A DNA stretch of 64,000 nt, taken from positions 14,510,001 to 14,574,000 of the forward strand of contig CM075990.1 of the NCBI GenBank assembly GCA_038087875.1, given 5' to 3'. How positions within the stretch are numbered: the first letter of the stretch is position 1; each line of letters starts with the position of its first letter. The position numbers and the translations under genes are program-made. Of this stretch, positions 33,439 through 53,640 are shown one piece after another. The DNA is from Malacoraja senta. Lineage: Eukaryota. Under the pieces are notes generated by a model. The model searched no databases. It worked only from the letters and a program-made list of their open reading frames with translations, and was not told where the DNA came from.

Positions 33439-34050
33439 TAGAAACATAGACATAGAAACATGGAAAATAGGTGCAGGAGGAGGCCATTCGGCCCTTCGAG
33501 CCAGCACCGCCATTCATTGCGATCATGGCTGATCGTCCCCAATCAATAACCCGTGCCTGCCATCTCCCCATATCCCTTGATTCCACTAGCCCCTAGAACT
33601 CTATCTAACTCTCTCTTAAATCCATCCCGTGATTTGGCCTCCACTGCCCTCTGTGGCAGGGAATTCCACTAATTCACAACTCTCTGGGTGAAAAAGTTTT
33701 TTCTCACCTCGGTCTTAAATGGCCTCCCCTTTATTCTAAGACTGTGGCCCCTGGTTCTGGACTCGCCCAACACTGGGAACATTTTTCCTGCATCTAGCTT
33801 GTCCAGTCCTTTTATAAGTTTCTGTAAGATTCCCCTCATCCTTCTAAACTCCTGTGAATACAAGCCTAGTCTTTTCAATCTTTCCTCATATGACAGTCCC
33901 ACCATCCCAGGGAACAATCTCGTGAACCTATGCTCCACTGCCGCAATCACAAGGATGTCCTTCCTCAAATTAGGAGACCAAAACTGTACACAATACTCCA
34001 GATGTGGTCTCACCAGAGCCCTATACAACTGCATAAGAACCTCTGTACTC
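33437..34050 (-). mobile_element. CR1/HER1 LINE, 5'-truncated, ORF2 C-terminal relic
   Basis: LYRALVRPHLEYCVQFWSP...LSYEERLKRLGLYS...RTRGHSLRIKGRPFKTEVRKNFFTQRVVN; (ctatgttt)n tail. Confidence 0.95.
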
Positions 34051-34774
34051 CAGCCAATCATCAAACAGTAACACAAACATCTTGCAACATTATGAACAGT
34101 ATTTACAATCCTTCTGCAGCCAGCCTATCATGCTTAAGCACTTGCAACACCTTTGGGTTTCTCTGTAAAGTACTCATACATTTTAACAATAGAGAGGACA
34201 TCTGGACCTCACCTTATCTGATAGTCCAATCTAGAACCCAGACTAGCTGGTGCCAATTTGCAGCTTTCAGCTTTGCACAGAAATTGACCAAACAGGGTTT
34301 GCAGATGCAATGGTCCTCCATTTTATATATCTATATTTTGGTCAATATTAACAATAATCGGTCAAAAGCGACCAGAGTTAAGGTTGATTAGAAATTCCCA
34401 GCTAAAGGATAAGCTCATTCCGTCAATTGCCGTGCCAGTGCAGAGAGCACAATGGGGAAATGGGCACATCTGGGACGTGATCTAAGTCAATGGCACTGGT
34501 TGAGAAGCATGGATTAGATTGGAAAGAGGTGGAGTGATGTTCAATTGGCAGTATTCATTAAGTACCTGTTGTATTGGGAATCGATGATTAGTGGCAGCTA
34601 ATGAATTAGGAGCCTGTGTGACAGGTGCGTTATTTGTAGATCGGTATATAATTGAGGTGTGTGGGGTCAGGATTTAAGTGGGAGGAGGTAAATGCGTGAG
34701 CTGAGTGGTGGTATGCAGGTAAGTAAATGTTACAGGGACATACACAAGGTGGGTTCTGGTAGCAAGTTAGATAG

Positions 34775-51368: not shown

Positions 51369-52151
51369 GCATCTCTGGAGAGAAGGAGTTTGTGATGTTT
51401 CGGGTCGAGACTCTTCTTGGCTTTGTCATTGATGGCAACATCCTGCAAATAATACAGTATCTCCGTCGTGCTTGCATATTGCTATTATTTAATTCAATAC
51501 TTATTATAATACACACAATAGATTTATGGCTGACTTTATACAGCACCAACAGAAGACCTGTTGGGCGGCAGTACAAGATGATCTCCAGAAGGAGGCACCA
51601 GTGTTAGTTTCTCTTGACTAATTCCTTTATTCTTTGGGGGGTTTCCGGGAGAATCAAAATGTCCTCTTTGAAACAGCAGTGTCTTTAATGACACTAGAAG
51701 TTAGGAAAAGTGCTATCTGCAATATGCTTTTCATTTAGTATCAGTCTCTGCTAAATGTTGTTTAGCTTTTTTTAATTAAAAAAAAGGCAAGCCTTTAATT
51801 TATTTTCCCCATATTGATCTGATAATCAAATATTTGTAATCTCCTTGATAATCAGCCATCCAAAGCGTTTAATAGAAATTAAAAGTTCAGAAAAGAGAGA
51901 ACAAGGAATACTATGGCACAGATACTTCAGCTGTGCAAAACATAATGCTAAGATAAACTAATCTCCTCCATCTGCATGTGATCCACATCCCTTCTTTCCC
52001 TGCACGTTCATGTTCCAATCTAAAACCCTGTTAAACACCACCGTATCTGCCTCCACCACCATCCCTGGCAACACATTCCAGGCACCCACCATATTCTGAG
52101 TAAAATTAAATTTCCAGCATATCTCCTTTAAACTTTGCCACTCTCACCATT

Positions 52152-52572
52152 CATCATTGGCAGACACTCGAAACGAGTATGACTGCCCTCTCTTCTCCAT
52201 AGGGTCGTAGGACGCCTGTGCGTGACTTTTTTTTAACGTGGGGAGATGGTGCACAGGCAGACATCACGCGGTCCTTGACAGATCTGGGTCAGGATCCAGT
52301 GGCATGGAGTCCAAGACGACCGGGGACCTTTTTCTGCTGCAGCCTTCATCCACCTTCCAGCCGTTGTGACACTCCACTAAAGTCAGCCATCATCCTCCGC
52401 TTGTTCCACCGTTGAAGTCTTGGTTGGATTGCTCTTTGTCAGGGACCTCCCCCTCGACCTTACCACCATGGGTGGCCCTATCAGGAGCATAGCTCCATAC
52501 GGCATCGTTCTCAGGATCTCAGGACCATACAAGCTTCTCCAACACGACAAGGTGACAATCCACGGAGAAGAT
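52152..52572 (-). mobile_element. Non-autonomous (bipartite) RTE-clade retroelement
   Basis: 10-bp TSD TCTCACCATT (52142-52151/52573-52582); RTE-like 5' end (gtcaccttgtcgtg...agggccacccatgg...ctgacaaaga); 3' tail ...tgccaatgatga; no ORF; inserted in a CR1 relic. Confidence 0.8.
52425..52570 (-). ncRNA. HDV-like self-cleaving ribozyme motif
   Basis: P1 CUUCUCC/GGAGAAG; P2 UGGAUUG-UC/GA-g-CAAUCCA; P3 ACC/GUU (one mismatch); L3 UUGUCGU; 1-bp P1.1 G-C; P4 base AGGG/CCCU; J4/2 GA-C-AAA with a candidate catalytic C at 52438. Confidence 0.7.
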
Positions 52573-53640
52573 TCTCACCATTAAAGCTATGCTCTCTCTC
52601 TATCTTTAAACATTCCCCTTAAAGTCGGAATTTTCACAGGAGTTGGCAGATCTGTAGGTTGTTTTGCAGCAGGTTGTAAGTGTAGCAATTAACGGATTGT
52701 AGACAAGGTTAATTTGATAGTGCCCTTGGAGTTACATCCAAGATATTCAGTGTTACTGGAACTCCTTTGAGTTTGTGAATTTCTGCCTGTCTGCTCAGAA
52801 CCTAAATCTCCTAAGGCACGGTTGGAAAAAAGCAGAGGCTGATAGAAAAATGCAATATAAAAACACGTGGGTTTAGTAAATGGAACAATTTATTATGCAA
52901 CAAAACTGTAATGGCCATGAGGGGAAATAGAACCAGTCAAGAAAAGGAACGGTAACAAATTATATCAATTGCATAATAGAAGTCATGTACATTTGCACTG
53001 GAGAGCAAGCATTGCCAAAAACAAAGCAACATTATAAGATCTTTCCCTTACTTTAGCAGACCTGGTGAGATCATTGAACCTAAAACAACACAGTAGATTT
53101 GTCTCCTACAAGGATATTGTCATTTATTGTTATCTTCTTCCTGGGATTGTCATCTATGAAATGTTAGTTTGGTAAGCAGAACAGGAACTTTGGCTTCTTG
53201 AGATAATTGTGACTTTCAGTGACCACAACAACCCAATGAAGCAATCTCGGTAACTGGTGCATCCGATTTGCCACCAGAAAGCACAATAGCTTACCAATGT
53301 AGTGATCTTCCAGTGATAGTCATGGGGTTGACTAGGTTCGATGGAAGTGTTGTGCAGACATTGTCCAGTATCTGCAGTTTCTTGTATCTTCTGCCTACCA
53401 TGCGAAAGTTCCTGCCAAAATGAAAATGGGCTTTTATTAACAAAAAAAAAAATATTTCCAGTAATTGAGACCAGATTTATTTTGCCAGAGACACAAGGAA
53501 CTGCAGATGCTGGAATCTTGAACAAAACACAACATGCTGGAGGAACAACAGGTCAGGCAGCATCTGTGGAGGCAATGGACAGGCAATTGAAGAACTGATA
53601 AAAACTGCAACAACAAAAAAATGGGGGGGGGGGGGGGGGG

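Follow-up and report, generated by a model that had tools for sequence, protein, structure and literature searches.

Sequence comparison and predicted folding indicate that the 419-bp repeat described here is a decayed copy of a non-autonomous RTE family (family A), and that the first 146 nt form an HDV-like double pseudoknot, likely self-cleaving before its first base in intact members. The repeat lies on the minus strand of the window, the whole 64-kb stretch of DNA analysed, and as a single copy it is itself ordinary. Its features, in 5' to 3' order along the minus strand after the entry for the whole element, are:

52152..52570, minus strand: whole non-autonomous bipartite RTE element, family A, 419 bp; compared with parent LINE L203 and 29 other copies
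52573..52582, minus strand: target-site duplication, 5' copy, 10 bp; exact repeat at 52151–52142
52571..52572, minus strand: two additional bases, likely untemplated, separating the duplication from +1; other copies commonly have 0–4 of them
52564..52570, minus strand: P1 5' strand, 7/7 Watson-Crick with 52540–52534; predicted cleavage immediately 5' of C52570
52554..52563, minus strand: J1/2 (1 nt, G52563) and P2 5' strand (52562–52554), pairing with 52434–52425
52541..52553, minus strand: P3/L3 core (ACC, 7-nt loop U-U-G-U-C-G-U, 3' strand), with a mismatch at 52542 peculiar to this copy
52533..52540, minus strand: P1 3' strand and the P1.1 C; C52533 pairs with G52548 of L3
52439..52532, minus strand: 94-nt branched P4 domain, with an interrupted long stem, a three-way junction and two hairpins
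52435..52438, minus strand: J4/2 with predicted catalytic C52438; C-A-A-A here, C-U-A-A and C-G-A-A in sister families
52425..52434, minus strand: P2 3' strand
52209..52424, minus strand: remainder of the RTE 5' UTR piece; 52571–52209 matches L203 566–926 at 88.8%
52159..52208, minus strand: RTE 3' UTR piece with terminal hairpin 52178–52166; 52208–52151 matches L203 4431–4488 at 89.7%
52152..52158, minus strand: short (GAT)n/(ATG)n microsatellite tail
52142..52151, minus strand: target-site duplication, 3' copy; exact repeat of the 5' copy

The element and its parent LINE

A DNA search of the same genome returned 3226 first-look candidates; of the 40 that were scored, 39 cover almost the entire element, and 29 other copies align to it nearly end to end at 88–90% identity. 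A 23-mer from the head occurs exactly 1037 times in the genome, marking a high-copy family. Exact duplications of variable length (8–13 bp) are found in 18 of the 52 family A copies having both ends, and the copies are dispersed.

The window copy is inserted into the 3' portion of a second high-copy repeat (51922–52150 and 52573–52600), which the target duplication rejoins, with the two flanks clearly in register as a single repeat in only about three of eight copies. We take this repeat to be of CR1 type, and the flanking sequence to point to a cartilaginous fish as host. A 151-aa open frame elsewhere in the window (33672–34124, minus strand), with no Pfam hit, presumably resembles the C-terminal part of a CR1-type RT protein. 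In a contig from another organism (run X11, record 8) the element's 5' end is continuous with the same flanking sequence (52543–52900), with 22 differences, so the insertion appears to be shared and to predate the split of the two organisms; no empty-site joint was found among the contig matches listed for four sequencing runs.

RTE derivation, as proposed in the first-pass annotation, is borne out by L203, a LINE of the same genome that carries the matches to both ends of the element about 3.9 kb apart. The tail match sits directly behind the stop codon, in a short 3' UTR followed by a microsatellite tail. L203 has an APE-type endonuclease domain (PF03372, E 3.4e-9) in a reading frame broken by stops and shifts; an RT domain (PF00078, E 2.4e-32) was found in a sister copy 90.7% identical to it over 2.36 kb. 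Homologues of the endonuclease are annotated “craniofacial development protein 2-like,” the best of them a pipefish protein at 79% identity; we take the name to be typical of RTE endonucleases. Over L203 1319–2005, against this 79%, identity to the top-scoring named sawshark protein is only 57%, which hints at horizontal transfer. Assignment of the parent to RTE is argued from architecture, names, and 5' UTR likeness rather than from an RT tree.

Because both its ends match L203, the window element reads as a plain internal deletion of a 3.9-kb RTE LINE in which some 360 bases of the 5' end and 58 of the 3' end were kept. The parent has the same head, and a ribozyme would therefore have been inherited from the RTE 5' UTR. 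Of the “ribozyme-headed SINE-like family” first proposed, the ribozyme-like head and the RTE link stand, but a special SINE head does not, the element being the LINE's own internal deletion. A tRNA-, 5S- or 7SL-headed SINE is likewise ruled out, since the head is the LINE's own 5' end and Rfam gave no tRNA, 5S, or 7SL match; the 10-bp duplication, the microsatellite tail, and the LINE parent rule out a solo LTR.

Searching with the element's 3' 91 bases yielded short elements only and no parent LINE. A pattern for the longer tail variant gave 51 matches, with the short element upstream in nine and something else in 42, most of the latter reading as an ORF end with a zinc-finger-like motif; among 20 such ORF-end loci retrieved, one (L203) was full length. 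Families C and D, RTE families from a DUF6451 search, have 3' ends that do not match the element. The first parent candidate proved to be a non-autonomous family of ~970 bp with the same head, a longer UTR, and a different RTE 3' end (18 of the 20 loci retrieved); two of the 20 (L189 and L190) carry a third tail. The same head on three tails amounts to tail exchange. Loci L172–L188 of the ~970-bp family (e.g., G000:C1:205245000-205250000) end in a zinc-finger-coding remnant of another RTE and a (CAA)n tail. Family B (L111–L140) has many independent internal deletions with differing junctions, some with an ORF-end remnant; in one copy (L115) a stretch immediately upstream of +1 duplicates a segment of the head, which may reflect a template jump.

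The fold in the window copy and in four RTE families

The landmarks named in the first-pass annotation (P1, P2, P3/L3, P1.1, the J4/2 C, a GGAGC-UAU-GCUCC hairpin, and the 10-bp target-site duplication) were all recovered at the minus-strand positions listed. P2 consists of 7+2 bp flanking a bulged G, its strands ~130 nt apart; P3 (52553–52551 with 52543–52541) has a C-U mismatch at 52542 and closes L3 (52550–52544), a plain 7-nt loop; and the GGAGC-UAU-GCUCC hairpin (52496–52484) is one of the two in the P4 domain. The order of a nested double pseudoknot, P1-P2-P3-L3-P3'-P1'-P1.1'-P4-J4/2-P2', is present. A descriptor for HDV-like folds, which tolerated one P3 mismatch and was written with the fold already known, and hence is generous to it, has its sole match at 52570 across both strands of the window and matched none of 3000 dinucleotide shuffles of the element. 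An Rfam scan of the element gave no ribozyme match up to E = 10; HDV-type models may miss it on account of the long P4 and C+1.

Homologous heads of three sister families in the same genome (B, C, and D) were found by relaxed patterns and the DUF6451 search; one narrower pattern recovered only five family A variants. The family C and D heads lie 2–3 kb upstream of RT-coding remnants. Heads without the J4/2 anchor were dropped, leaving 80 of the 86 for family A, 18 of the 20 for B, 28 of the 31 for C, and all 25 for D; P1 and P2 pairing was counted by script from the anchors, which did not include P1.

The majority P1 sequences pair Watson-Crick at 28/28 positions over the four families, and both sides are changed at five of the seven positions. 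P2 has 7–9 bp in every family, closing onto J4/2, with paired changes at three core positions. The P1.1 G-C pair is found in 76/80 (A), 14/18 (B), 25/28 (C), and 25/25 (D) heads. The J4/2 majority begins with C in all four families, in one of the three forms listed above, and the conserved U and C-G of L3 are kept in all four, conservation that is partly circular because the P3/L3 and J4/2 motifs served as anchors; C52438 is also kept in 28/28 other copies aligned without a motif filter, an alignment that supports L3 as well. The 3-bp P3 is intact in the majorities of A, B, and C, and broken in the window copy; family D (L256–L280) has an A-A outer pair in 24/25 heads. A natural core variant is seen in family D, where the J1/2 U could instead lengthen P1 to 8 bp.

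P4 was counted, along with P3 and P1.1, in a MAFFT alignment (A1) in which 1–2 nt indels put P1 and the family D P2 out of register. For 22 copies from the four families, 21 of them chosen for an intact core, the consensus P4 fold, derived from the same sequences on which it was scored, is paired in 94.5% of cells, with a covariation score of 0.387 as against 0.204 when shuffled and 0.05–0.14 when slid; pairs with double changes (11 of 23–24) are not above shuffles (98/500). The base of P4 adjoining P1.1 is weak, with 2–3 pairs and a mismatch in families A and C.

P1 is predicted with a probability of 0.89–0.99 within the first 45 nt in 9/9 copies (L203 left out). Every core pair together with the C is kept in 26/80 (A), 6/18 (B), 4/28 (C), and 10/25 (D) heads, low proportions as expected of neutrally decaying copies. 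The covariation is carried by only four families, and so by few independent events. At the level of family majorities, P1/P2 complementarity and the J4/2 C are thus retained, and the HDV-like 5' fold claimed from the single copy is upheld. The predicted catalytic C lies in a CpG context in families C (L221–L250) and D, its loss following the course that methylation would lead one to expect: 13/28 family C heads have C-to-T or G-to-A at that CpG.

5' ends, alternative readings, and the window copy

Conservation begins at the first P1 base in all four families, rising between positions -1 and +1 from 39 to 68%, 40 to 90%, 51 to 87%, and 32 to 92% (A–D respectively), in agreement with the proposal that elements start at the predicted cleavage site. 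In 15 of the 18 copies with an exact duplication of at least 8 bp (from the 52 having both ends), the duplication ends within -4 to +2 of +1; 5' ends pile up at the first P1 base. At the 52570 boundary, depth drops 115–153-fold in four sequencing runs from four organisms, as calculated from contigs, which cannot show RNA ends.

By analogy with R2 and L1Tc, a cycle can be proposed in which a source copy would be transcribed by read-through from a host promoter, or from an internal promoter; the ribozyme, with C52438 and Mg2+, would cleave the transcript at +1; the parent LINE protein would bind the 3' hairpin (52178–52166, the predicted recognition site of the RTE protein) and tail in trans; and target-primed reverse transcription would insert a copy starting at +1. 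Full-length copies, because they begin at the ribozyme, would be able to process themselves again. The same DNA may also act as a promoter, as Pr77 does. With P2 fully paired, J1/2 is left with 0–1 nt, so that activity would need distal P2 pairs to fray.

A different reading, in our estimate a rather unlikely one, is that the pseudoknot is mainly structural, serving 5' end protection, RTE protein binding, or the parent's translation start, with slow or no cleavage, and that an internal Pol II promoter sets +1. Linkers of 0–1 nt gave little or no cleavage in drz-Agam-2-1 (PMC4908430). The weak P4 base, the A-A mismatch in the family D P3, and the retention by the non-autonomous element of ~215 nt of UTR past the fold would also fit; the L1Tc head combines promoter and ribozyme functions (PMC3185411), and R2 ribozyme folds protect 5' ends (PMC13708176). 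However, it is the nucleotides that catalysis, not shape, requires (the J4/2 C, C-N-A-A, and the L3 U and C-G) that are kept in four families while the stems change, and the 5' end tracks the first P1 base even where P1 letters and P1-to-P3 spacing differ between families, both of which argue against this reading.

The window copy itself, suspected of inactivity from the outset, is likely dead, judging from its sequence and modelled fold. The P3 mismatch is private to it: the pairing G is present at 52542 in 27/28 other copies, and the base restoring P3 makes up 98–99% of contig depth there in the four runs. It differs from the family A majority by 8.8%, in scattered changes, compared with 1.0–6.5% for the 29 others, a set biased to best hits. 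In a nested fold including 40 nt of flank, upstream bases pair with the P2 and P3 5' strands, and neither P1 nor P2 is formed; flank interference of a similar kind is described for L1TcRz (PMC3185411). There is very little chance that this copy remains active or has been exapted as a host ribozyme, even though its P1, P2, P1.1, and J4/2 C are intact, the insertion is shared with the organism of run X11, and a mismatched P3 has been recorded in an active R2 ribozyme (PMC3774820); against this stand the defects just listed, and a Pfam search covering 107 of the 109 open frames of at least 84 aa in the window found no host exon.

That a conserved RTE 5' UTR shows this fold by accident, with uniform 5' ends just marking full-length copies, is scarcely credible: the Rfam scan and the nested minimum-energy fold would allow it, but pseudoknots are invisible to nested folding, no shuffle and no other site in 128 kb fitted the descriptor, and the paired changes in P1, P2, and P4 largely refute it.

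Relation to known ribozymes and bipartite elements

A natural series for studying how RTE 5' ends are formed is available here: the LINE L203, the miniature derived from it, and families B, C, and D with their paired changes. PMC5786205 leaves open the question of why bipartite elements arise solely from RTE, Ingi, Vingi, and R2; a self-processing head would be a partial answer. Gene-insertion templates use RTE-1 UTRs (PMC13708176), so that identification of the 5' UTR as a ribozyme would inform their design.

Ribozyme-headed bipartite RTE derivatives are a class already described. HDV-like ribozymes of RTE elements are attributed to Ruminski et al. (2011), as cited in PMC5786205, PMC3774820, and PMC6765202, and non-autonomous bipartite RTEs include RTE1-N1_LA, RTE-N1/N2_Lch, RTESINE1/2, WALLSI3, and Bov-A (Kojima, 2018; PMC5786205). 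According to the latter paper, bipartite elements usually retain the LINE's 5' end, a feature connected there to the predicted RTE ribozymes. Family A resembles them in joining the ends of an RTE LINE's 5' and 3' UTRs, in having no ORF, and in its microsatellite tail and tail exchange, and differs in that it and its parent come from another lineage; as far as PMC5786205 is covered here, no ribozyme fold is drawn for this head. Nor does the literature covered describe family A, the parent LINE, or the fold of the head, although the RTE ribozymes listed by Ruminski et al. may already include this vertebrate head.

Among the sequences printed in the supplement to PMC5786205, the heads of RTE-3_Crp, RTE-7_PM, RTE-14_Lch, AviRTE, BovB, and RTE1-N1_LA appear homologous by eye, the hosts of the homologous printed heads including crocodile, lamprey, coelacanth, bird, platypus, aardvark, and elephant. 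Similarity to the crocodile head is some 85–90% by eye, and in the elephant RTE1-N1_LA P1, P2, L3, P1.1, and C-U-A-A are legible by eye, with P3 changed on both sides. We would advance only tentatively, as a possibility that falls some way short of an even chance, that the vertebrate RTE head is an uncharacterised subfamily of active HDV-like ribozymes of the trypanosome type, shared by the RTE, BovB, and AviRTE lineages from lamprey to elephant. Such a subfamily would cut before C+1, have a G-C P1.1, almost no J1/2, and a 94-nt branched P4, and be portable between RTE tails; with thousands of copies per genome, it would have been missed by Rfam and by G+1 descriptors. If so, few self-cleaving RNAs of vertebrates would be more abundant than this head.

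The closest points of comparison in layout are with the trypanosome ribozymes L1TcRz, NARTc, and L1Tco (PMC3185411, PMC4035085), which share with the family head cleavage before C+1, a 7-bp P1, a single-pair P1.1, an ACC/GGU P3, a 7-nt L3 ending in C-G-U, and a C-N-A-A J4/2; there, too, the ribozyme is common to a LINE and its internally deleted partner. The L1Tc-like layout recognised in the first-pass annotation is matched by the active L1Tco ribozyme (PMC4035085 supplement), with C+1, 10 nt from P1 to P3, the ACC/GGU P3, a 7-nt L3, a one-pair P1.1, and C-U-A-A; the P1-to-P3 spacing is 9–10 nt in the families here, equal to that of L1Tco. The trypanosome ribozymes belong to the Ingi/L1Tc clade rather than RTE, have A-U instead of G-C as P1.1, and have a short hairpin as P4 where the head here has its 94-nt branched domain. 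They are proven active, whereas the family head is known from its sequence and predicted fold.

Like the family head, drz-Agam-2-1 and other RTE ribozymes are of the RTE clade and lie at the exact 5' end of the element (PMC4908430), but drz-Agam-2-1 has its large insert in J1/2, which here has 0–1 nt, the insert being in P4. R2 ribozymes and R2 SIDEs provide another example of an HDV-like 5' ribozyme retained by internally deleted non-autonomous elements (PMC3774820, PMC3414825). R2 resembles the family here in its variable P4 and in having variable 5' junctions when the cut coincides with the element end; it is rDNA-specific and uses a restriction-like endonuclease, whereas the family here is dispersed and its parent has an APE endonuclease.
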